From Candidatus Scatosoma sp. (GTDB taxonomy: Bacteria > Bacillota > Clostridia > Christensenellales > Borkfalkiaceae), in NCBI GenBank assembly GCA_045127595.1, contig JBGVQS010000027.1, positions 42,447-66,446 of the forward strand: a stretch of 24,000 bases of DNA, given 5' to 3'. Below, one piece after another: positions 5,335-24,000 of this stretch (its first letter is position 1; each line of letters starts with the position of its first letter). The notes below the pieces were generated by a model, which was given only the letters and a program-made list of their open reading frames with translations, ran no database searches and had not been told where the DNA came from. A program made the translations under genes and the position numbers.

Positions 5335-5980
5335 TATATTGCAATCAAAAGCAGAGCCGAACTTTGCGGATTTTCAAAGGAAATTGATATTTACGAAATA
5401 CAAAATTTTAGGCGTTCGTACACCAACGCTTCGAAAGCTTGCAAAAGAATTTCAAGAAAATCTTGAAGAAGTTTTTCATTATCCCAACGAATACTATGAA
5501 GTTGTTTTTATAAAGCTGACAATGGTCTCCATGTTGCCGTATGCAAATTTTTTGGCGTATTTAGACGATAGCGTTTCGCTCATGGATAATTGGGCACTTT
5601 GCGATTCTTTTAAGGCAAAATGCATTAAAAAGCGTTTGGAGGAGTTCTTGCCCGTTTTAGATAAAATCTTTCAAAACGGCGGCGTTTATCACGTTCGATA
5701 CGTGTTGGTTACCTTGTTGTCCTTTTATTGCGACGGAAATTATTTGACGGAATTGAGCGGATATATAGTAAAAGCGGATACGTCAAAATATTACGTACAT
5801 ATGGCAGTTGCATGGCTGACTGCAGAACTTTTAATCAAACAGTATGAATATGGCGTTATCTTGTTAAAAAATAGGTGTTTTGACAAAAAAACACATAACA
5901 AAGCCATTCAAAAAGCGGTAGAAAGCTACCGTCTTTCAACAAGTCAAAAAGAGTATTTACGTACTCTAAAAATAAAATAA
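5312..5980 (+). CDS. DNA alkylation repair protein (AlkD-like HEAT-repeat family)
   Basis: 222 aa all-helical protein with the block DNWALCDSF and a repeat layout typical of the DNA alkylation repair enzyme family. It overlaps the upstream gene by 23 nt. Confidence 0.7.
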   Translation: MKYSEFLNILQSKAEPNFADFQRKLIFTKYKILGVRTPTLRKLAKEFQENLEEVFHYPNEYYEVVFIKLTMVSMLPYANFLAYLDDSVSLMDNWALCDSFKAKCIKKRLEEFLPVLDKIFQNGGVYHVRYVLVTLLSFYCDGNYLTELSGYIVKADTSKYYVHMAVAWLTAELLIKQYEYGVILLKNRCFDKKTHNKAIQKAVESYRLSTSQKEYLRTLKIK

Positions 5981-5993
5981 AGTAAGGTAAAGT

Positions 5994-8162
5994 ATGGACA
6001 TTTTACAAACGATTACACAAGAATTTAATTTAAAGCCTATCCACGCGCAAAATATTGTTTCCTTGATCGATGAAGGGAACACAATCCCTTTTATCGCGAG
6101 ATACCGTAAAGAAATGACGGGTAGCTGCGACGACCAAGTGTTGCGTGAATTTTTTGATAGATTGACCTATCTTCGCAATCTTGAAAAACGTAAAGAAGAA
6201 GTAACGAACGCGATTACGGAGCAAGGAAAAATGACGGATGATATTCGCGCGGCTTTGGGAAAAGCGGTTACGCTTACTGAAGTGGAAGACATTTACCGCC
6301 CCTATAAGCAAAAGAGAAAAACGCGCGCTTCGGTGGCGATTGCAAAAGGTTTGCAGCCGCTTGCCGACGCAATTTTGGCGCAGGATAAAACGCTCGACGT
6401 ATCAGCGGAAGCGGAAAAATATTTATCCGACGAAGTTCCTACCGTAAAGGACGCGATCGACGGGGCGCGTGATATTATTGCGGAAATTATTTCCGACGAC
6501 GCGCAAACGCGTAAAAAGCTTCGTAATTTCTTCTTTAAGCACGGGGAAATTTCTTCCGTATACGCAAAGGGAAAAGAAGCGGAAGACGAAGTAAAAACCT
6601 ATGGAATGTACGCAGAGTATTGCGAACCCATCAGCGAAGTAAAAAGCCACCGCATTCTTGCGCTCAACCGTGGAGAAAAGGAAGAATTTTTAAAGGTATC
6701 CATTGTTGTAGATGAAGAATTTGCAAAGCGTATTACCGCGGCGAGCTTTTTAAAAGACGGCGGCGAAAGCAGCAAGATTGTTAAAGAAGCCGCGGAAGAC
6801 GGGTATACTCGCTTGATTGCGCCTTCGGTAGAACGAGAAGTCCGTGCGCAGCTTTTTGACGATGCAAGCGAGCAGGCGATTAAAATGTTTGAATTGAATT
6901 TGAAACCGCTTTTGATGCAACCGCCCGTCAAGGATAAAATTACGATGGGTTGGGACCCTGCGTTTAGAACGGGCTGCAAAATTTGTGTTGTAGACGGCAC
7001 GGGCAAGGTGCTCGATAAAACGGTTGTGTTCCCCACGCCGCCGCAAAATAAAACAGCGGAAGCGAAAGTCGTTTTAAAACAGTTGATTGCGAAACACGGG
7101 GTAGAGGTCATTTCTTGCGGAAACGGCACGGCGAGCAAGGAAAGCGAAATTTTTATCGCGGAATTGATTAAAGAAATCAAGGCGGAAACAGGCCACGAAG
7201 TCGGCTACGTAATCGTAAATGAAGCGGGCGCGTCCGTGTACTCGGCAAGCGCACTCGGCGCGGAAGAATTCCCCGATTACGACGTTACGGCAAGAAGTGC
7301 GGTATCGATTGCAAGACGTTTACAAGATCCGCTTGCGGAATTGATAAAAATCGATCCGAAATCCATCGGCGTTGGTCAATATCAGCACGATATGAATGAG
7401 AAACGTTTGGACGGTGCACTTTCGGGGGTTTTGGAAGATTGCGTAAACAGCGTTGGTGTGGATTTGAACACCGCGAGCGTTTCGCTTTTGAAATTTGTTG
7501 CGGGGCTCAATTCTTCCGTCGCGAAAAATATCGTTGCGTACCGAGAAGAAAACGGTCGTTTTAAATCGAGAAAACAGCTTTTGAAAGTGCCTAAACTCGG
7601 TGAAAAGGCGTATACGCAATGCGCAGGGTTCTTACGTATCGACGGCGGTGAAAATATCTTGGATAATACCGCAGTACACCCCGAATCGTACGCAAAAGCT
7701 GAAAAATTATTGTCCTTGTTCTCTTATACCAAAGAAGACGTAAAAGCAAGAAGAATTTCCGATTTACGCCAAAAGATTAAAGCATACGGGGAAGAAAAAG
7801 CTGCAAAAGAAACGGAACTTGACAGCGCGACCCTTTCGGATATTGTAACTGAACTTATGAAGCCAGGCAGAGATATTCGTGAAGGTTTGCCTGCGCCTAC
7901 ACTTCGCAAAGATATTATGGGTATTGAAGATTTACGGGTCGGAATGGAGCTTACCGGCACGGTACGTAACGTGGTAGACTTCGGCGCATTTATCGATATC
8001 GGCGTGCATCAAGACGGCTTGGTACATATTTCCGAAATTACGGAACGATACATTAAACACCCGTCGGAAGTTTTAAAAGTAGGGCAAATCGTGCAAGTTT
8101 GGGTAAAAGAAGTAGACGTTAAAAAGAACCGTATCGGGCTTACGATGAAAAAGAAAAAGTAA
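5994..8162 (+). CDS. tex: Tex-like transcription accessory protein (YqgF/HHH/S1 domains)
   Basis: 722 aa. The N-terminus has NTIPFIARYRKE. A central RuvC/YqgF-like region and an HhH region are present. The C-terminal S1 domain reads GTVRNVVDFGAFIDIGVHQDGLVHISE. Confidence 0.93.
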   Translation: MDILQTITQEFNLKPIHAQNIVSLIDEGNTIPFIARYRKEMTGSCDDQVLREFFDRLTYLRNLEKRKEEVTNAITEQGKMTDDIRAALGKAVTLTEVEDIYRPYKQKRKTRASVAIAKGLQPLADAILAQDKTLDVSAEAEKYLSDEVPTVKDAIDGARDIIAEIISDDAQTRKKLRNFFFKHGEISSVYAKGKEAEDEVKTYGMYAEYCEPISEVKSHRILALNRGEKEEFLKVSIVVDEEFAKRITAASFLKDGGESSKIVKEAAEDGYTRLIAPSVEREVRAQLFDDASEQAIKMFELNLKPLLMQPPVKDKITMGWDPAFRTGCKICVVDGTGKVLDKTVVFPTPPQNKTAEAKVVLKQLIAKHGVEVISCGNGTASKESEIFIAELIKEIKAETGHEVGYVIVNEAGASVYSASALGAEEFPDYDVTARSAVSIARRLQDPLAELIKIDPKSIGVGQYQHDMNEKRLDGALSGVLEDCVNSVGVDLNTASVSLLKFVAGLNSSVAKNIVAYREENGRFKSRKQLLKVPKLGEKAYTQCAGFLRIDGGENILDNTAVHPESYAKAEKLLSLFSYTKEDVKARRISDLRQKIKAYGEEKAAKETELDSATLSDIVTELMKPGRDIREGLPAPTLRKDIMGIEDLRVGMELTGTVRNVVDFGAFIDIGVHQDGLVHISEITERYIKHPSEVLKVGQIVQVWVKEVDVKKNRIGLTMKKKK

Positions 8163-11335: not shown

Positions 11336-11806
11336 ATGACTGACACAAATAGTTTATCACATACCAAATGGAATTGCAAGTATCATATCGTATTTTGTCC
11401 AAAATATCGTAGACAAGAAATATACGGTAAGATAAAAGAAGACGTAGGGAAGATACTTCGAAAATTGTGCGAAGCGAAAGGAGTAGAAATTATAGAGGCG
11501 GAAGCATGTCCAGACCATATACATATGTTGGTGTCAATACCGCCCCATTTGAGCGTAGCACAATTTATGGGATATCTGAAAGGTAAAAGTTCACTGATGA
11601 TTTTCGATAGGCGCGCAAACTTAAAATACAAATACGGAAATAGGCATTTTTGGTGTCGTGGGTATTATGTAGATACAGTAGGCAGAAACGAAAAGAAGAT
11701 ATCGGAATATGTAAGGAATCAGTTGCAGGAAGATATAGTAGCCGACCAACTGAGTTTGAAAGAATACATAGACCCGTTTACGGGTAGCAAGAATAGCAAG
11801 GCATAA
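11336..11806 (+). CDS. tnpA: IS200/IS605 family Y1 (HUH) transposase TnpA
   Basis: 156 aa. It has the block SHTKWNCKYHIVFCPKYRR, the HUH motif (PDHIHMLVSIPP) and the C-terminal catalytic Tyr region (SEYVRNQ). Confidence 0.93.
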   Translation: MTDTNSLSHTKWNCKYHIVFCPKYRRQEIYGKIKEDVGKILRKLCEAKGVEIIEAEACPDHIHMLVSIPPHLSVAQFMGYLKGKSSLMIFDRRANLKYKYGNRHFWCRGYYVDTVGRNEKKISEYVRNQLQEDIVADQLSLKEYIDPFTGSKNSKA

Positions 11807-16582: not shown

Positions 16583-16741
16583 ATGAAAAAGAAACTGATG
16601 ATATTATCGCTTTGCTGTTGTTTGTTTGTCGCGATTTGCGGAATCTTTTCTTCTTGTATGTTGAGCGAACCTGAACAGCCTTCTACAAGCAAAAATTCGG
16701 CGGTAAACGGCGATACGGATTCTTGGACGGGGAATTATTAA
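16583..16741 (+). CDS. Small ORF (52 aa) missing from the supplied track: signal-peptide/lipoprotein-like N-terminus plus a short polar tail
   Basis: My translation is MKKKLMILSLCCCLFVAICGIFSSCMLSEPEQPSTSKNSAVNGDTDSWTGNY, ending at TAA 16739-16741. An AGGGGA RBS lies 5 nt upstream of the ATG. The ORF exactly fills the gap between purB and the next gene. Coding status is not proven. Confidence 0.45.
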   Translation: MKKKLMILSLCCCLFVAICGIFSSCMLSEPEQPSTSKNSAVNGDTDSWTGNY

Positions 16742-16750
16742 GGCATAAAT

Positions 16751-17464
16751 ATGATTTACGATATTGCAGGTCTGCGGATAAAAATTGAAAATCAATATTC
16801 TTTCACGGATAATTTTTGCAAAGCCTACCTTTCGGAAGATCAATCTTCCCCCAGTGATATTATTGCTGCGGTAACCCAAGAAGAATTTGCGGAAGAAAAA
16901 GAAAAAAGCGAAGGTTTTTCAGACGGATATATTGAAAATATTTGTTTGTATCGCTCGATTTGTTTGCAACTTCCCAAATTTAATCGTATGCTTTTGCATG
17001 CAGCGATTCTCGAATGCGACGGAAGCGGTTATGCATTTTTAGGGAAAAGCGGCACGGGGAAATCTACGCATACGCGATTGTGGTTACAGTATTTACCGCA
17101 ATCCTTTATTGTAAACGGCGACAAACCGATTTTAGAATTTACGGATCATGGCGTTTTTGCCTACGGTACGCCTTGGATGGGAAAAGAACGTTTCGGCAGG
17201 AATACGAAAACGGAACTGAAAGGGCTTTGCTTTTTAGAACAGGCGAAAGAAAATTCAATCGAAAAATTATCCGTTACAAAAATTGCGGCAAGATTATTCA
17301 TTCAGATTCTTTTGCCGACCGAAGAAAAAGCGGCTACGCGGACGTTAGAACTCGCAGACGAGTTGGTGATGCGCGTGCCGGCGTACTTATTGAAATGCGA
17401 TATTTCCGAAAAAGCGGTTGCAACGTCTTACGAAGCATTGACGGGAAAAGCTTATAACATTTAA
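16751..17464 (+). CDS. HPr kinase/phosphorylase C-terminal-domain-like P-loop protein (HprK-related)
   Basis: LLHAAILECDGSGYAFLGKSGTGKSTHTRLWLQYLPQSFIVNGDKPIL lines up with the HprK block LHGVL..YGVGVLITGxSGVGKSExALEL..RGHRLVADD..EI as I recall it. The protein is 237 aa and has no other recognisable domain. Confidence 0.6.
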   Translation: MIYDIAGLRIKIENQYSFTDNFCKAYLSEDQSSPSDIIAAVTQEEFAEEKEKSEGFSDGYIENICLYRSICLQLPKFNRMLLHAAILECDGSGYAFLGKSGTGKSTHTRLWLQYLPQSFIVNGDKPILEFTDHGVFAYGTPWMGKERFGRNTKTELKGLCFLEQAKENSIEKLSVTKIAARLFIQILLPTEEKAATRTLELADELVMRVPAYLLKCDISEKAVATSYEALTGKAYNI

Positions 17465-17483
17465 AAAAATACGGAGGAAACGT

Positions 17484-17747
17484 ATGAAGATAAAAAAAGG
17501 ATTTGTTGTTCGCGTTGTTGGCGGCGAACACGTTGTCGTACCGGTTGGGGAACTTAGCAAAACCTTTCACGGTATGATCAATTTAAACGGAACGGGCGCG
17601 TTTTTATGGAATTTCTTCACGCAGGATCATACGGTAGAAGAAGGCGTTGAAGCACTTTGCGCTGAATACGACGTTGCGGAAGAAAGAGCAAGAGAAGACG
17701 TGGAACGTTTTGCACAAATTATAACGGCGAACGGATTTACGGAATAA
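17484..17747 (+). CDS. PqqD-family protein (RiPP recognition element-type peptide chaperone)
   Basis: 87 aa. The pattern LNGTGAFLWNFF...TVEEGVEALCAEYDV..ERAREDVERFAQIITANGF matches the PqqD pattern (LN.tg..iW..l....t.eei...l...y.v....a..Dv..fl..L...g). A GGAGGA RBS is present. Confidence 0.75.
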   Translation: MKIKKGFVVRVVGGEHVVVPVGELSKTFHGMINLNGTGAFLWNFFTQDHTVEEGVEALCAEYDVAEERAREDVERFAQIITANGFTE

Positions 17748-18214
17748 TGGAAGCACAGCAAACAAAAAATATAGAAAGCGTACTTTTGGAAAAGGGCGTG
17801 TATATTGGTCCAACCGTTGGGGTAAGTATGCTACCCATGCTAAAAAATAGGCGGGATACAATCGTTGTTCGTCCCAAAACGGGAAAATTGAAACCGTTGG
17901 ACGTTGCGCTTTATCGGCGCGGAGAAGCTTACGTTTTGCACCGTGTTTTGCGGCCGACGGATAGCGGATATATTATCCGCGGCGATAATTGCTATTCCGA
18001 CGAAAACGTGCCGGAAGATTGCGTAATCGGCGTTTTAACCGAGTTTTTCCGTAAAGGAAAGCATATTGATTGTACGGACGAAAAATATATCGCTTACGCA
18101 AAAAGACGTGTGAAAACTTATAAATTTCGCCGTTTTTTTGTATTATTAAGAATGCGAACCGTCGGATTAATAAAGAAAATTGTAAGAGTTTTTATTAAAA
18201 AGAAAAAGGACTAA
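17747..18214 (+). CDS. S24/S26-family serine peptidase, ER/SipW-like Ser-His signature, no predicted TM segment
   Basis: It has box-B-like GVSMLPML, box-D-like YVLHRVL (His where bacterial SPase I and LexA have Lys) and box-E-like RGDNCYSDE. The start overlaps the PqqD stop (TAATG). Confidence 0.65.
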   Translation: MEAQQTKNIESVLLEKGVYIGPTVGVSMLPMLKNRRDTIVVRPKTGKLKPLDVALYRRGEAYVLHRVLRPTDSGYIIRGDNCYSDENVPEDCVIGVLTEFFRKGKHIDCTDEKYIAYAKRRVKTYKFRRFFVLLRMRTVGLIKKIVRVFIKKKKD

Positions 18215-18216
18215 TT

Positions 18217-19896
18217 ATGAAAAAGGCAAAAGGCAAAGCAAAACTTTGGTTGAATAGAGAGATGCGCCCTTATCGCGTGTCTATTTTATCTTTGACCGTT
18301 TTGGGCTCGATTGCCACTCTTTCTACGTTGGCTTTTGCGTATTTGGTTCGTTATTTGATAAATACTGCGGCAGACGGTGATAAAAAGCTCTTATGCATTT
18401 TTTCCGCCGTTGCACTGGGGCTTTTACTACTGAAAATTTTTATTAGGACGTTTGATTCCTATTATGCAGAGAAATTGCGTTCAAAAATGGTTTCATCCTT
18501 GCGTACAAAAACATTTTCAAGGGTTTTACGCTCGGAATATGCAGGCTTGCAAGGGTATCACAGCGGAGATGTTTTAAACCGCTTAACTTCTGATATAAAC
18601 GAAGTTACGGTAGATACGGTAGGTTTTTTGCCGACTGTAACGGGCATGATTTTACAGTGTGTCGGCGCGGTAGTTGCATTATTGACGATTGATCCTTTGT
18701 TTACGTGTATATACGTGGTTTGCGGATTGATTTTTGGCGGCCTTGCAACACTGTTTAGAAAACGAATTAAAAAATGTCATAAAGAAGTCATGGAAGCAGA
18801 CAGCGCGTTCCGTGCGTTTATGCAAGAAAGTTTAGGCGCTACTATGACCTTAAAGGCATATGGTGCGGAAGGGCGTGTGGAAGAAAAAACGGCTCAAATC
18901 GCCACGGAATATTACGAAAAACGCAAACAAAGAAATATTTTGCGGGCAATAATGAGCGGTTTATTCAGCTTATTGAGTAATTTTGGGTTAATTTTTGCCA
19001 TTGTTTGGTGCAGTTTTAGCGTTTTAAAGGGCAATAACGATTTTGGCTCTATTTTATCCGTTATTTTGTTATTGATGCAATTCCAGCAGCCTTTGACTGC
19101 TTTTTCGTCCGTTTTGCCTGTATATTATGCTCGATTAGCAAGCGCGGAACGCATTTTAGAATTAGAAGAAATTCCTAAGGAAGATTTAATTTCTCAAGAT
19201 GATAATGCGGCTGATTATGAGAACTTACAGGAAATCGTCTTTGAAAATATTGATTTTTCCTACGGCCGTGAAATTATTTTTGAAGATGCAAGTGTTCGGT
19301 TTAAGAAAAAGGAAATCATATGCTTGACGGGTATGTCGGGGGCAGGCAAAAGCACGATCTTTAAGCTATTGATGAGCATTTATAAACCGAATAAAGGGGG
19401 AATTTTGTTGTTGGGGACATTTGACGGCGCGGAAAAAATTCCTTTAAATGAAACTTCTCGTGCTTTATTTGCCTACGTTCCGCAGGGGAATTTTCTCTTT
19501 TCAGGAACGATTTATGAAAATATAAAATTTTTTGCTGAAGAACAAAAAGAGGATAAACTTTTGCAAAAAATCAAACAAGCCCTTTCTGCGGCTTGTGCGG
19601 ACTTTGTTTGGGAATTGCCTGACGGCTTGCAAACCTCTTTAAACGAAGGCGGGGCAGGGCTTTCCGAAGGGCAGTTGCAACGTCTTGCCGTCGCGCGTGC
19701 ATTGTTGTCCGAACGTCCTATTTTGCTTTTGGACGAAGCTACGTCGGCACTTGACGCGGATACGGAAAAAACGTTGCTTGAAAACATTAAAAACTTTACG
19801 GATAAAACCTGTTTAATCGTTACACACCGTCCTGCTGCATTACATATTGCCGACCGTATCATTACGATCGAGAACGGTAAAATTCGAGCAAAATAA
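18217..19896 (+). CDS. ABC exporter, fused permease-ATPase (type I exporter half-transporter)
   Basis: 559 aa. The N-terminal TMD has about 6 hydrophobic segments. The NBD has Walker A GMSGAGKST, signature LSEGQLQRLAVARAL, Walker B ILLLDEATSALD and H-loop IVTHR. There is no C39 peptidase domain. Confidence 0.9.
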   Translation: MKKAKGKAKLWLNREMRPYRVSILSLTVLGSIATLSTLAFAYLVRYLINTAADGDKKLLCIFSAVALGLLLLKIFIRTFDSYYAEKLRSKMVSSLRTKTFSRVLRSEYAGLQGYHSGDVLNRLTSDINEVTVDTVGFLPTVTGMILQCVGAVVALLTIDPLFTCIYVVCGLIFGGLATLFRKRIKKCHKEVMEADSAFRAFMQESLGATMTLKAYGAEGRVEEKTAQIATEYYEKRKQRNILRAIMSGLFSLLSNFGLIFAIVWCSFSVLKGNNDFGSILSVILLLMQFQQPLTAFSSVLPVYYARLASAERILELEEIPKEDLISQDDNAADYENLQEIVFENIDFSYGREIIFEDASVRFKKKEIICLTGMSGAGKSTIFKLLMSIYKPNKGGILLLGTFDGAEKIPLNETSRALFAYVPQGNFLFSGTIYENIKFFAEEQKEDKLLQKIKQALSAACADFVWELPDGLQTSLNEGGAGLSEGQLQRLAVARALLSERPILLLDEATSALDADTEKTLLENIKNFTDKTCLIVTHRPAALHIADRIITIENGKIRAK

Positions 19897-19927
19897 AAAA
19901 ATGAACTCCTCGGAGTTCATTTTTTTT
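19897..19927. terminator. Bidirectional rho-independent terminator shared by the ABC exporter operon and the AraC gene
   Basis: Perfect 9-bp stem ATGAACTCC (19901-19909) / GGAGTTCAT (19912-19920), with an A-run before it and a T7 run after it. Confidence 0.85.
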
Positions 19928-20813
19928 ATTTAATGCTAGCTCTATATTCGCTTGGGGTTAATCCTACGTGTTTTTTAAATATGCACGTAAAGGTTGATAT
20001 TGAATCGAAGCAAAGACTGTCTGCAATGTTACCGAAAGATATATTTTTTCGTATCATTTTTTTGGCTTCGTCAATTTTCAGTTTTAAGTAGGTTTGATAA
20101 ATGCTTTTGCCTGTCTTTTCACGGAAAAAAGTGCATAAATGGGTTGTGCCATAATGCAATTCGTCGCTTAAATCGCTTAATTTAAATTTGCCGTGTATTT
20201 TTGAGCGTAATATACGTACAATTTCATCTTCCAACTCCGAAGAATCGGCAATTTTTGATACAAAAAACTCTTGGGAGGCTTGGTTATTGTCTTGTAATCG
20301 CAATAAGTAAATCAATAACAATTCCAAAGAATTTTTTAATATTTGTTCTCCTCCCAAATTCGGGTTTTCTTTTAATTTCAATTCCGTTAAATTCGGATCG
20401 AATTCAGGAAGATTAAACGTTCCAAGGGCTTCACTCATAATATTTTGCAGTAAATAACGAAAGTTTTCGGGTACGGAGAACTTTTTATCAATGAAATATT
20501 GCATAGATTCCGAACGGCAACTGAACGAAATGATAAACAAGTTCGGTTCTTTGTCGCCACTTTCAACAAAATGCGGTTGATTCGGCTTGATAAAAATAAT
20601 TTCGCCTTGCTTTAATTGTACGTGCTTGCCGTCGATAATAACAAAAATATCTTCCTTGTCTGCATAATTGATTTCCCAAAAATCATGTTTTTCTTCGGGA
20701 AAGGAATAATTTTTTTCCAATGCTTGATAATGGATCGTTACAATTTTTTGCACGTTTAACAAGTTGGAAATTTTGTGCATATAAAATTTTTTCGCAGGAA
20801 TTTTTGTGTTCAT
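19926..20813 (-). CDS. AraC-family transcriptional regulator (N-terminal cupin, C-terminal HTH)
   Basis: The cupin core reads GEIIFIKPNQPHFV. The C-terminal AraC double-HTH includes HYGTTHLCTFFREKTGKSIYQTYLKLKIDEAKKMI...FDSISTFTCIFKKHVGLTPSEYR. I set the start to ATG 20813 (MNTK...) because the longer track ORF begins at TTG and would run through a strong promoter. Confidence 0.85.
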   Translation of the reverse strand: MNTKIPAKKFYMHKISNLLNVQKIVTIHYQALEKNYSFPEEKHDFWEINYADKEDIFVIIDGKHVQLKQGEIIFIKPNQPHFVESGDKEPNLFIISFSCRSESMQYFIDKKFSVPENFRYLLQNIMSEALGTFNLPEFDPNLTELKLKENPNLGGEQILKNSLELLLIYLLRLQDNNQASQEFFVSKIADSSELEDEIVRILRSKIHGKFKLSDLSDELHYGTTHLCTFFREKTGKSIYQTYLKLKIDEAKKMIRKNISFGNIADSLCFDSISTFTCIFKKHVGLTPSEYRASIK

Positions 20814-20819
20814 ACCCGT

Positions 20820-20848
20820 ATTATAGCAAATCCAAAAACATTTGTAAA
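20820..20848 (-). promoter_or_regulatory. Strong sigma-A promoter of the AraC gene; geometry implies a leaderless mRNA
   Basis: On the - strand: TTTACA (20843-20848), 17-nt spacer, TGCTATAAT (20820-20828). The ATG at 20813 starts 7 nt after the -10 and no SD can fit. Confidence 0.5.
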
Positions 20849-20925
20849 ACGTTTCAAGCAAATATTTGATTTTTTCATATAAAAAAACTGTGAAAGAATT
20901 CCAAACAAAAGAGAAAAATTTTCTA

Positions 20926-20970: not shown

Positions 20971-22047
<1,077 letters not shown>

Positions 22048-22051
22048 TACG

Positions 22052-22079
22052 AAAAACACCGTCGGTTGACGGTGTTTTT
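22052..22079. terminator. Bidirectional terminator between the convergent nahK-like and HAD phosphatase genes
   Basis: Stem CACCGTC (22057-22063) / GACGGTG (22068-22074) with loop GGTT, flanked by A5 and T5 runs. Confidence 0.8.
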
Positions 22080-22579
22080 CAATATAAATTTAAAATTTCA
22101 TCAAAGCGATTAAGAATGGGAACGTCGGGATATTTTTCGCGGACAACAGAATGTTCGTTTGTTCCATAACCCGTCATAACGAGTATAGCTTGCGCGCCTA
22201 CGTTTTTTGCGCAAAGTACGTCGCTTTCTCGATCCCCGACGACCAAGCATTCATTAAGGGGGATTTTTAGCTTTTGTGCGGCACGCAAAAGCAAACCACT
22301 TTTAGGCTTTCTGCAATCGCAATGGTCTGCGTTATCGTGCGGACAAATTTCCCATACGTCTACACCGTAAGAATCGAATTCTTTGGCATAATCGTAATTT
22401 TTTGCCGTACCGCGCGCAATACTTGATTGATTTGTAATAATACCAACGAAATAACCGCGTTTTTTTAATGTGTGAAAAACTTCAGCGATATCGCAAAAAG
22501 GGGAAAAGGTTTCAGGAAAACGTTTATCTGATAGCTCGCCAAGCGTACCGTCCCGATCAAATAATATACATCGTATCAT
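22079..22579 (-). CDS. HAD-IIIA family phosphatase, GmhB (D,D-heptose 1,7-bisphosphate phosphatase)/histidinol-phosphatase-like
   Basis: HAD motif I is FDRDGTL, motif II is ITNQS and motif III/IV is VGDRESD. The Zn-binding insert CPH...CDCRKP is typical of GmhB-type enzymes. Confidence 0.8.
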   Translation of the reverse strand: MIRCILFDRDGTLGELSDKRFPETFSPFCDIAEVFHTLKKRGYFVGIITNQSSIARGTAKNYDYAKEFDSYGVDVWEICPHDNADHCDCRKPKSGLLLRAAQKLKIPLNECLVVGDRESDVLCAKNVGAQAILVMTGYGTNEHSVVREKYPDVPILNRFDEILNLY

Positions 22580-22697
22580 TATGCACCTATAAAAATATCT
22601 ATTTTGATTATATCATTATAGGCTGATATTGTCAAGCAATAAAAAATCTATAAAATTAAAACGAAGAATTTCTAATATGGCTACGCGCTTTTTAAAA

Positions 22698-22726
22698 TTT
22701 AAATTTGCAAAAAACGGTGTTATAAT
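22698..22726 (+). promoter_or_regulatory. Putative promoter P1 (extended -10) upstream of the toxin-like gene leader
   Basis: TTTAAA (22698-22703), 17-nt spacer, TGTTATAAT (22718-22726). Confidence 0.4.
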
Positions 22727-22780
22727 AGTATCGTGGAATTGAAAAAAAATCGATTCTCGGACGTTCTATTTTCTTCTCAG

Positions 22781-22812
22781 CCCCGTTTGTCTTATTGGAC
22801 GAGCGGGGTTTT
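22781..22812 (+). terminator. Intrinsic-terminator-like hairpin inside the leader (attenuator, or 3' end of a small RNA)
   Basis: 11-bp stem CCCCGTTTGTC (22781-22791) / GACGAGCGGGG (22798-22808), including 2 G-U pairs, with loop TTATTG, followed by TTTT (22809-22812). Confidence 0.5.
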
Positions 22813-22824
22813 ACATGAGAAGTA

Positions 22825-22853
22825 TTGACAAACAAGACGAGGTGTGGTACAAT
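22825..22853 (+). promoter_or_regulatory. Near-consensus promoter-like element P2 overlapping the RBS and start of the toxin-like gene
   Basis: TTGACA (22825-22830), 17-nt spacer, TGGTACAAT (22845-22853). It ends 1 nt before ATG 22855, so its role is unclear. Confidence 0.35.
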
Positions 22854-22854
22854 T

Positions 22855-23271
22855 ATGGCAGAGTTTGACGAAAGCAAGCATCCGCGTGATGAACAGGGAA
22901 AGTTTACAAACGGCAATGGAGCGACAGAGTATAGACAAAATACGCCGTATGAACAAATAAGCGGAAAACTTATTCCTGAAAAAGCGTACGGCTTTGCGAA
23001 TAAACAAAGAAAACATACAAAGGACCACGTTGCTCACGCCCAAGAAATGGGATTTAAGAATCAAGACGATTATGAAAAAGCCGCATGTGAATTTTTCAAT
23101 GGAGATAAAGGAAAACTTTATTTCGAGCCAAGAAGAAGTCGTTTTTATCGCTACGATGAAAAGAGTCAAAGAATGGCTGTATCGAGCAATGGCATTATTC
23201 ATACTTTTCTTTTTTATGATAAAAAGAAATTTGAAAAAGTAAGAAAACAGGAGGGATTAAATGATTTATAA
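22855..23271 (+). CDS. Hypothetical protein with an N-terminal KHPR-x4-GKF motif and a His-rich toxin-like C-terminal domain
   Basis: 138 aa counted from ATG 22855, with a GAGGTG RBS at 22839-22844. The supplied track starts at TTG 22825. Motifs are ESKHPRDEQGKF and HTKDHVAHAQEMGF...YEKAACEFF...FYRYD...GIIHTF. The local GC content is low. No family is confidently recognised. Confidence 0.6.
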   Translation: MAEFDESKHPRDEQGKFTNGNGATEYRQNTPYEQISGKLIPEKAYGFANKQRKHTKDHVAHAQEMGFKNQDDYEKAACEFFNGDKGKLYFEPRRSRFYRYDEKSQRMAVSSNGIIHTFLFYDKKKFEKVRKQEGLNDL

Positions 23272-23473
23272 AGTGAAATGTCCGATTTGTGGGACATTAT
23301 TTGAGGGTGGTTCTTTTGATAATTGCCCGAAGTGTGATTGGTGTTATCAAGGAATTGAAGGTGAGTTAGATAAAGACGAATATGATGAGGCGAACCACAC
23401 TACGATTGCAAAAGCAAAAGAAAATTTCTCGAAAGGATTAGATAAATGGGGTGAACCGTTATCTAAAAAATAG
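23261..23473 (+). CDS. CPCC-family cysteine-rich zinc-ribbon protein
   Basis: 70 aa. The pattern CPICG-x11-CPKCDW...DEANHTTIAKAKENFSKG fits the CPCC-domain pattern (CPCCG...CPvCfWeDD...aN..sL.eAr.nf). A strong AGGAGGGA RBS is present, and the start overlaps the upstream ORF by 11 nt. Confidence 0.7.
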   Translation: MIYKVKCPICGTLFEGGSFDNCPKCDWCYQGIEGELDKDEYDEANHTTIAKAKENFSKGLDKWGEPLSKK

Positions 23474-23510
23474 TATAAACTAACTATTACGTATAAGTAT
23501 TAAGTAAGTA

Positions 23511-23563
23511 TATAATAAAATATATATTATATAATAATAAATATAATAAATAATAATAAAAAA
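23511..23563. repeat. 53-nt tract of pure A/T low-complexity sequence
   Basis: Positions 23511-23563 contain no G or C and consist of TATAATAAAA / ATAATAATAAA-type iterations. Degenerate AAGTA repeats at 23491-23510 precede the tract. Confidence 0.8.
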
Positions 23564-23696
23564 CAAAGCACAGTGCAGATAATAAAATGCACCGTACTTT
23601 TTTCATACAAGTAAACTTGATAGATGTTAAGGATATTACTTCCCCAAAAGCAACATTTTTTAGTAACTTTTGCATAGACCATACACAAATGCAAAC

Positions 23697-23746
23697 AAAA
23701 ACGCCCGTATTTAAGCGTTAAAACCGCTAAAAACGGGCGTTTTTGT
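23697..23746. terminator. Bidirectional terminator between the CPCC gene side and tRNA-Leu
   Basis: Stem ACGCCCGT (23701-23708) / ACGGGCGT (23733-23740), extended by an A4/T4 flank. T-runs follow on both strands. Confidence 0.7.
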
Positions 23747-23748
23747 AT

Positions 23749-23834
23749 TGGTGCCGAAGGTGGGACTTGAACCCACACGGTATCGCTACCAATGGATTTT
23801 GAGTCCATCGCGTCTGCCATTCCACCACTTCGGC
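23749..23834 (-). tRNA. tRNA-Leu (anticodon CAA), class II with long variable arm, CCA encoded
   Basis: The reverse complement reads GCCGAAG-TG-GTGGAATGGCAGACGC-G-ATGGA-CTCAAAA-TCCAT-TGGTAGCGATACCGT-GTGGG-TTCAAGT-CCCAC-CTTCGGC-A-CCA. The 7-bp acceptor stem, 5-bp anticodon stem, 5-bp T stem and TTCAAGT T-loop all pair. Confidence 0.93.
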
Positions 23835-23853
23835 AACGATTAACAGCTTATTT

Positions 23854-23882
23854 ATTATACTCAATCCATAAAAAAAAATCAA
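23854..23882 (-). promoter_or_regulatory. Sigma-A-type promoter of tRNA-Leu
   Basis: On the - strand: TTGATT (23877-23882), 17-nt spacer, TATAAT (23854-23859), about 20 nt upstream of the tRNA 5' end. Confidence 0.55.
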
Positions 23883-23931
23883 GCGTTTGCACAAGGTTTT
23901 TTATAAAAAATTAAATATTTTTTTAATTCTC

Positions 23932-23960
23932 TTGCGATTTTTTTTATTTCGTGGTAAAAT
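23932..23960 (+). promoter_or_regulatory. Promoter for a gene starting at the window edge
   Basis: TTGCGA (23932-23937), 17-nt spacer, TGGTAAAAT (23952-23960). AAAGGA at 23979-23984 and ATG at 23995 follow, and the CDS is cut off by the window end. Confidence 0.45.
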
Positions 23961-24000
23961 ACTAATATATATCAATAAAGGATGCGCATTATATATGGAA

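Follow-up and report, generated by a model that had tools for sequence, protein, structure and literature searches.

Five genes downstream of purB

In the 24,000-nucleotide stretch of DNA analysed here (Candidatus Scatosoma sp., contig JBGVQS010000027.1, positions 42,447 to 66,446; hereafter the window), five open reading frames (ORFs) follow purB closely on one strand. They encode a small protein of 52 aa, a P-loop protein (K), a discrete recognition element (RRE) for peptides that are made by ribosomes and modified after translation (RiPPs) (B), a signal-peptidase-like peptidase (S) and an ABC exporter (D), the coordinates of which are collected in Table 1. The block from K to D (16751-19896) is probably a reduced and distant Clostridial relative of the machinery that makes linear polyphosphorylated peptides (LPPs), the clusters of which have been dissected in Bacilli and show the order lppA-K-B-S-D-N (Popov et al., Nat Commun 2026; PMC13381572). 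In that system, deletions revealed that LppK adds up to four phosphates to Ser3 of the core and that LppS removes the leader, and leader cleavage by LppS in vitro needs the RRE (PMC13381572). The window was analysed by Pfam, NCBIfam and PDB searches, by AlphaFold2 models with Foldseek, and by BLAST against Supplementary Data 1 of PMC13381572.

An earlier note, made from the letters of the window alone, had described the five same-strand ORFs with their spacings, a TAATG overlap and a bidirectional terminator, and direct reading confirmed this layout. The 52-aa ORF is separated from K by 9 nt, K from B by 19 nt and S from D by 2 nt (18215-18216), and the stop codon of B overlaps the start codon of S in the TAATG at 17745-17749. 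The terminator that closes the block has a 14-bp stem, A/T-rich tails and T-runs on both strands, and it scores in either direction. Because no terminator was detected between purB and the block, and the best promoter-like site upstream of the block lies ahead of the dCMP-deaminase gene, co-transcription with the genes for dCMP deaminase, a peptidyl-prolyl isomerase (PPIase) and PurB is plausible; the block is probably transcribed together with purB.

K carries the P-loop motif LLHAAILECDGSGYAFLGKSGTGKST, and its top profile match is NCBIfam TIGR04249 (ScmC, 8.5e-7), followed by HprK_rel_B (4e-3). Its homologues carry Pfam PF27840, which a matching contig labels 'ScmC' on its own 237-aa K gene; a literature search for 'PF27840' gave no result. 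The AlphaFold2 model of K (predicted local distance difference test, pLDDT, 97.7) matches ATP-dependent phosphoenolpyruvate carboxykinase (PEPCK) along its entire length and HprK/P within the kinase core (Foldseek probability 1.0, E about 1e-6), and residues H83, S100-G-x-G-K104 and N122-G-D124 are invariant in 38 diverse homologues. A PDB sequence search with K produced chance matches only, and tblastn against plasmids produced three weak ones in unrelated taxa (Phocaeicola, Prevotella and Butyrivibrio). Judged from its model, K is an HprK/PEPCK-fold protein, which agrees with the HprK-type P-loop protein recognised at the outset. Being HprK-like and of the ScmC/TIGR04249 type, it resembles the kinases of LPP clusters; by analogy, kinase chemistry would be expected of it, and K is predicted to be a peptide Ser kinase.

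The 87-aa product, B, belongs to the PqqD family (Pfam E 2.3e-17), as its sequence pattern had already suggested, and its closest solved relative in the PDB is LppB (9x8z_B, E 8.5e-5). Residues N35, Y62, D72 and F76 of B align with the leader-binding residues N33, Y60, D70 and F74 of LppB, and L34 is equivalent as well; the corresponding LppB residues hold the Tyr and Pro of the leader (PMC13381572). The leader-binding positions are invariant or nearly so in 37 Scatosoma-type RREs, which argues that B still binds a YxxP-type leader. By analogy with the LPP system, the pathway encoded by the block would also depend on its RRE. B shows 37-44% identity to the 'RRE others' of clusters 4 and 9 in the published sequence similarity network (SSN), with E values of 1e-21 to 1e-24, and 27-32% identity to LPP RREs, with E values of 6e-8 to 2e-5.

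S contains the catalytic boxes GVSMLP, VLHRV and RGDN, and its best model is TIGR02228, for signal peptidase I of the archaeal type (6.6e-5). Its residues S27, H65 and D85 align with the catalytic S29, H68 and D93 of LppS (PMC13381572) and are invariant in orthologues, which NCBI names 'S24/S26 family peptidase'. The earlier note had used the same label for the serine-peptidase boxes of this product; it is acceptable, the more specific assignment being the SipW/archaeal Ser-His type. The AlphaFold2 model (pLDDT 81.8) matches UmuD', LexA, SpsB and SipA with probabilities of 0.98-1.0, and S has an N-terminal helix, no N-terminal transmembrane (TM) anchor and a long basic C-terminal helix. Its identity is 27-29% to the LPP peptidases of SSN cluster 1 (E 4e-6 to 1e-3) and 34-36% to peptidases of clusters 9 and 4 (Ruminococcus and Dehalobacter; E 1e-18 to 1e-14). 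Judging by its motifs, S is a SipW-type Ser/His/Asp peptidase, and by analogy with LppS it is predicted to be the leader peptidase. The last product, D, was rightly taken for an ABC exporter: it consists of ABC_membrane (2e-34) and ABC_tran (3.8e-23) domains, its top NCBIfam models are MsbA_rel and MsbA, and no C39 peptidase domain was found in profile scans. D is thus an MsbA-like exporter of the kind present in LPP clusters. Indeed, the top models for the window proteins (TIGR04249, PqqD, TIGR02228 and TIGR02203/4) also populate the LPP domain matrix of PMC13381572.

A pathway of four steps can be proposed for these products by homology to the lpp cluster of Paenibacillus, which was dissected experimentally (PMC13381572). 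The discrete RRE (B) would bind a YxxP-type leader, and the HprK/ScmC-type P-loop kinase (K) would phosphorylate a Ser close to where the core begins. The SipW-like peptidase (S), cytoplasmic or membrane-associated, would then cut off the leader at a site presented by the RRE, and the MsbA-like pump (D) would export the product. The same logic of recognition, modification, cleavage and export had been put forward in the earlier note, and it matches the pathway shown experimentally for LPPs (PMC13381572). The accompanying claim that the block fits no characterised RiPP class did not survive, since LPP clusters were dissected in 2026 (PMC13381572) and the block appears to be a reduced, distant homologue of them. 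We argue that the block is functional, because its ORFs are intact and the catalytic and binding residues are invariant across dozens of species.

Distribution of the cassette and its missing precursor

A genome scan yielded 59 related loci, mostly titled Candidatus Scatosoma (gut Clostridia incertae sedis), and a metagenome set added 80 loci, including a distant subset of 30 loci at 36-46% identity with enough flanking sequence. K-B-S-D is syntenic in about 50 of the 59 genome loci (K identity 58-70%), a synteny that the claim of the earlier note required; about 42 Scatosoma-type loci have the four genes intact. A K-B-S(-D)(-N) set, in which N is the NTP_transf_5 gene (lppN in LPP clusters), recurs in many of the 80 metagenome loci. 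Because this synteny recurs across genome and metagenome loci, the gene arrangement is not a matter of chance.

The block lies directly after the dCMP deaminase-PPIase-purB genes in about 45 of the 59 loci, and NTP_transf_5 is absent from all of the purB-linked ones. Four loci that are not purB-linked (L027 and L051-53) carry NTP_transf_5, as do many distant loci. Indeed, K-B-S-D-N is found in 14 of the 30 distant loci, and precomputed Pfam labels independently confirm the arrangement ScmC-PqqD-(S)-ABC-NTP_transf_5. The K family as a whole is very large: an exhaustive HMMER search gave 8107 cluster representatives (50% identity) at E<=1e-3 and 4413 at <=1e-10. In some single proteins, K is fused to NTP_transf_5, Peptidase_S24 or PqqD (P0198, P0269, P0129 and P0188). 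In one metagenome locus, L089, two divergently oriented K paralogues stand side by side (5873-6856 on the minus strand and 6986-7699 on the plus strand).

Not all relatives have an RRE. K-S-D without B occurs in four of the 59 genome loci; K-S-D loci are L043, L047, L048, L050, L062, L072 and L073, and K-S loci are L054, L077, L079, L080, L129 and L137. Leader recognition may proceed without a discrete RRE in part of the K family. In the RRE-less lineage (L043 and L050), an APH-family gene lies directly upstream of K.

Precursors of LPPs carry the leader motif YxxPxVLxHQxIxFETxxS (Px9Fx[T/A]), followed by a variable core (PMC13381572). When the published leader expression was run over the window and the 59 loci, it gave chance matches only, several of them crossing stop codons. 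A hidden Markov model (HMM) of Clostridial leaders had no match in the window, in Scatosoma-type loci or in the relatives at 54-62% identity (L001-L074), and inspection of the sequence downstream of N or D in Scatosoma-type loci and the 54-62% relatives found no divergent precursor. In the Scatosoma lineage, the cassette is reduced and fixed, having neither the NTP-transferase nor an adjacent canonical precursor. Since the YxxP-binding pocket of B is conserved, a remote canonical precursor is favoured; the gene for the matching leader peptide most likely lies in another part of the genome.

Such precursors do occur in distant loci. Beside the ScmC-PqqD-S-ABC-NTP_transf_5 clusters of gut metagenomes lie peptides with a lasso/LPP-like leader, termed type (i) here, which measure 35-45 aa in the distant loci and 31-66 aa in the family at large; one example is MKYETPSMEVVEFEGKDVVCSS.. 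and others are listed in Table 1. Their consensus is MKEKYxxPEMEI[VI]EFExEDVITTS; the core behind it is short and acidic, with ..ELPPxx as a frequent ending. The leader HMM matches about 30 loci, always on the strand of K, and precursors with a YxxP leader are present in 20 of the 30 distant loci. A profile search with type (i) retrieved 1437 database proteins. Type (i) examples and LppA, when scanned, fell into no Pfam or NCBIfam family, and there was no named record or curated model for type (i) in the libraries searched.

Several observations weigh against the proposed kinship with LPP clusters. The matches of K to NCBIfam models are all below threshold (28.6 bits for ScmC, against an equivalog cut-off of 125), and its likeness to LppK comes from family models and fold. 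The match of S to TIGR02228 lies below the curated cut-off, and the Foldseek E values for its model are weak (about 0.02). Edges in LPP SSN cluster 1 have E<=1e-23, whereas the best value for S was 3.6e-6, in pairwise BLAST with four cluster-1 members as a small subject set. B groups by BLAST with the 'RRE others' and not with the LPP RREs. NTP_transf_5 (LppN), a core gene of LPP clusters, was not found among the Pfam-scanned ORFs of the window, nor was a canonical YxxP precursor found within about 8 kb in the window, the Scatosoma-type loci or the 54-62% relatives. Furthermore, the existence of K-S-D and K-S relatives means that the family is not always dependent on a leader or an RRE.

Table 1. 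Positions of the block and its terminator in the window, and of small ORFs in distant related loci
Feature	Locus	Position	Strand	Remarks
Small ORF, 52 aa	Window	16583-16741	+	Type (ii) class; ORF call, Shine-Dalgarno-like AAGGGG
K, 237 aa	Window	16751-17464	+	HprK/PEPCK-fold P-loop protein; LppK counterpart; predicted peptide Ser kinase
B, 87 aa	Window	17484-17747	+	Discrete RiPP recognition element (PqqD family); LppB counterpart
S, 155 aa	Window	17747-18214	+	SipW/archaeal-type signal-peptidase-I-like peptidase; LppS counterpart; predicted leader peptidase
D, 559 aa	Window	18217-19896	+	MsbA-like half-transporter ABC exporter; LppD counterpart
Bidirectional intrinsic terminator	Window	19895-19926	Both	Closes the block and the convergent AraC gene
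Type (i) precursor	L082	6366-6473		
Type (i) precursor	L083	6329-6445		
Type (i) precursor	L103	813-935		
Type (i) precursor	L103	1428-1544		
Type (i) precursor	L131	2071-2190		
Type (i) precursor	L141	9001-9111		
Type (i) precursor	L143	9001-9126		
Type (i) precursor	L143	9175-9303		
Analogous ORF	L103	935-1411		C-terminus ..DEDELPPIPVF
Analogous ORF	L131	2425-2832		C-terminus ..ELPFVPIG
Analogous ORF	L141	9179-9610		C-terminus ..ELPFVPME
Analogous ORF	L082	6541-6978		C-terminus ..GERWTGYY
Analogous ORF	L092	6564-6992		C-terminus ..DW[KN]PWF, as in L123 and L134
Analogous ORF	L055	7678-7968		

The small ORF ahead of K and other readings of the block

At its N-terminus, the 52-aa ORF has a signal- or lipobox-like stretch (..IFSSC), from which a short acidic linker leads to the conserved C-terminus, WTGNY. 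The class to which it belongs, termed type (ii), is marked by a signal or a lipobox-like stretch at the N-terminus, an acidic linker that is variable and of low complexity, and the conserved C-terminus [DE]xW[TS]xNY-stop. Among 16,381 stop-to-stop frames of the window and the 59 loci, this C-terminal motif has 20 matches, and all 20 lie on the same strand as K and immediately upstream of it. Synonymous changes occur in the codons for Thr, Asn and Tyr and in the stop codon, and the motif is therefore conserved as a peptide. An all-versus-all clustering of intergenic small ORFs brought out the WTxNY family and, beside it, only gene shadows and one small protein of the acyl-carrier-like kind. An N-terminal hydrophobic segment is present in 28 of 28 type (ii) members, and their mature parts are net acidic; a simple parser detected a lipobox-like x-[AGS]-C in 17 of the 28, with further ones visible by eye, and about five possess no more than a signal or a TM anchor. 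The ORF is found in about 40% of purB-linked loci, the others having gaps of at most about 50 nt at this place, and it is missing from about 60% of the loci in which K-B-S-D is intact. The 52-aa ORF falls into no Pfam or NCBIfam family (it has two sub-threshold lipoprotein-type matches only) and corresponds to no paper in the literature searched. A locus with two tandem type (ii) ORFs ahead of K is L011 (7523-7699, ending in ..EGWSKNY, and 7620-7991, ending in ..QKWTKNY), where the linkers after the lipobox Cys measure 34 and 67 residues, respectively.

The distant loci have an analogous set of lipobox-bearing, acidic, low-complexity ORFs (96-158 aa), situated between the type (i) precursors and K (Table 1). 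In L103 and L131, the C-termini of these ORFs resemble the ends of the co-encoded precursors (..DEDELPPVIVG and ..DENELPIM, respectively).

The idea that the small ORF is an LPP-type precursor had to be given up: neither the window nor L001-L074 contains such a precursor, and instead of a YxxP leader the 52-aa ORF has a putative Sec/lipoprotein-type signal at its N-terminus and a conserved C-terminus. For this ORF, we infer a role as an accessory or partner protein more readily than as a substrate, because it has no leader, brings an export signal with it, can be dispensed with in most loci and belongs to a class that elsewhere coexists with true precursors. One possibility is that such small ORFs are surface-tethered mimics of the exported phosphopeptide and serve as immunity factors, decoys or cis-ligands, which would fit the way in which their C-termini echo those of the co-encoded precursors. 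Similarly, the analogous ORFs of 96-158 aa might act as tethered mimics, as immunity factors or as further substrates. That the small signal/lipobox acidic ORFs with aromatic C-termini (WTxNY in the window, ..ELPPxPxF or ..DWNPWF in relatives) form an integral and undescribed component of these clusters is a bold suggestion that we consider quite unlikely. A signalling propeptide of the Phr/PapR type was also considered for the 52-aa ORF, the architecture being similar, and was rejected since the neighbourhood has no RRNPP receptor and the linkage of the ORF to K is strict.

Nonetheless, in the Scatosoma-type lineage the small ORFs might be the actual substrate in a variant of the pathway that recognises a follower or the C-terminus. 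In such a case, the signal-like leader would be cut off by the SipW-like S, the Thr/Tyr of the C-terminal W-T-x-N-Y or a Ser of the linker would be phosphorylated by K, and D would export the product. The 52-aa ORF sits exactly at the lppA position, all motif matches lie directly upstream of K, its peptide motif is fixed under synonymous codon variation, as in a translated ORF, and no other conserved family of intergenic small ORFs occurs near the block. Moreover, S descends from true signal peptidases, and paeninodin-type kinases act at the C-terminus of their precursor (introduction of PMC13381572). However, the RRE keeps its YxxP-binding residues although the 52-aa ORF has no YxxP motif; the ORF bears a putative Sec/lipoprotein export signal of its own; most intact K-B-S-D loci do without it; the class stands beside canonical precursors in distant relatives and does not replace them; and Thr or Tyr was not accepted by LppK when substituted for Ser (PMC13381572). 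On balance, a substrate role appears unlikely. If it were true, the Scatosoma-type loci would contain not a degenerate LPP cluster but a domesticated pathway, inherited vertically and with a new substrate logic.

It is less probable still that the cassette was co-opted for a non-RiPP housekeeping role, for example, the phosphorylation and export of a cellular peptide or an envelope component. This would explain both its fixed place in a purine/nucleotide operon and the loss of precursor and NTP-transferase. The invariant position after dCMP deaminase-PPIase-purB with no terminator after purB, the vertical pattern (compare the patchy distribution of LPP clusters in Bacilli, suggestive of horizontal gene transfer), the size of the K family and the occurrence of K-S and K-only contexts are all in keeping with such a role. 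Yet the leader-binding residues of the RRE are conserved, relatives with a richer context, whether close or distant, are clearly peptide-maturation clusters, and no alternative substrate is indicated; we therefore regard co-option as improbable.

The remaining large ORFs of the window proved to be housekeeping genes in a Pfam scan: MutS2, polysaccharide deacetylase, M16 peptidase, uracil-DNA glycosylase, Tex, ABC-F, Spo0A, IS200 TnpA, GroEL/ES, an AraC regulator, an APH-family kinase and a HAD phosphatase. Because all of them are accounted for in this way, the absence of lasso cyclase, B2, radical-SAM, YcaO and LanM genes from the Pfam-scanned ORFs, which the earlier note had reported, stands. 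That note had also allowed for the block being a fragment of a known cluster type, and the homology to LPP clusters (PMC13381572) bears this out in part. A fragment of a paeninodin-type lasso cluster whose cyclase and B2 lie elsewhere, or a decaying, non-functional remnant, is hardly credible: the kinase, PqqD protein and ABC exporter are indeed common to Firmicute lasso clusters, and the NTP-transferase and precursor are indeed missing, but in neither the window nor its Pfam-labelled relatives was an Asn-synthase-like or a transglutaminase-like gene found (the lasso fragment was rejected on this ground), the position of B2 is filled, as in LPP clusters, by a SipW-like S, and the ORFs are intact with catalytic residues that are invariant across dozens of species.

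Some features of the surroundings deserve mention. The genes for the AraC regulator (19926-20861, minus strand), the APH-family phosphotransferase (20983-22047, plus strand) and the HAD phosphatase (22079-22579, minus strand) are kept downstream of the block in many loci. An IS200/IS605-type Y1 transposase gene (11336-11806, plus strand; Pfam Y1_Tnp 5.5e-41) lies between spo0A and groEL. The region 22600-24000 is low in GC (0.32-0.35) and contains a 148-aa ORF without a Pfam match at E<=0.01 (22825-23271), a 70-aa Cys-rich (CxxC) ORF (23261-23473) and a tRNA-Leu(CAA) gene (23749-23834, minus strand); it may be an integration hotspot or the remnant of one. An Rfam scan of the window found a single tRNA and nothing else.

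Comparison with known systems

The reading of the block as a reduced relative of LPP machinery can be set against several kinds of known system. Paeninodin-type lasso clusters (PadeK/ThcoK, B1 RRE, NTP-transferase and ABC exporter) share with the window an HprK-like kinase, a discrete PqqD-family RRE and an exporter, and there is also a likeness between lasso leaders and those of the distant Clostridial precursors (YxxPxMEV..). However, these clusters have a macrolactam cyclase and the cysteine protease B2, whereas neither the Asn-synthetase-like C protein nor the transglutaminase-like B2 was found among the window ORFs or in the Pfam-labelled relatives, and leader removal is assigned here to a serine peptidase of the signal peptidase I type. 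In the SynChlorMet cassette, as in the window, a ScmC-family protein is paired with a PqqD-family protein (ScmD), but the cassette includes two PqqE-like radical-SAM/SPASM enzymes, of which the window has none, and the ScmC and ScmD scores of the window proteins lie far below the equivalog cut-offs. As a family resemblance, the connection that the earlier note drew with paeninodin-type kinases and with the SynChlorMet cassette (ScmC) is correct. The SipW/S26B signal peptidases I share the boxes GxSMxP, HR and GDN with S, and TIGR02228 is its best model; in contrast to them, S has no N-terminal membrane anchor, and it is predicted to cleave RiPP leaders under the guidance of the RRE and not Sec signal peptides.

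The closest parallel in pathway logic is the LPP system of Bacilli, where this logic is already known (PMC13381572); such clusters had been described for Bacilli alone, and not before 2026. What is new is a Clostridial sister clade with a precursor family that matches no curated model or named record searched, a version without NTP-transferase or precursor that is fixed after purB, variants without an RRE, and a companion class of lipoprotein-like ORFs. The window points to a much larger sister family of LPP in gut Clostridia, one lineage of which has fixed a stripped-down K-B-S-D inside a housekeeping operon. This offers new handles on the role of phosphorylated linear RiPPs, with abundant examples from the gut and natural 'minimal' and RRE-less variants. 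Current rules for RiPP mining would miss these precursors and clusters alike.

LPP clusters and the window block have in common the gene set and order K-B-S-D and a small ORF in the place of lppA. Their homology is distant, with S and B at 27-32% identity, and the hosts are Bacilli in one case and Clostridia in the other. LPP clusters have an NTP_transf_5 gene and a precursor with the YxxPxVLxHQxIxFETxxS leader, both absent from the window, where a lipoprotein-like small ORF lies upstream instead. Furthermore, LPP clusters are patchily distributed, in a manner suggestive of horizontal transfer, and sit in capsule loci (PMC13381572), whereas the window block follows purB as part of a housekeeping operon and has the look of vertical inheritance. 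The best matches of the window S and RRE are found in SSN clusters 4 and 9 ('SpI + other RRE': Dehalobacter, Anaerocolumna and Ruminococcus), which are likewise Clostridial. These clusters are merely listed, with the precursor given as 'ND' and no architecture or product described (Supplementary Data 1, PMC13381572), and the lineage of the window is further reduced than they are.

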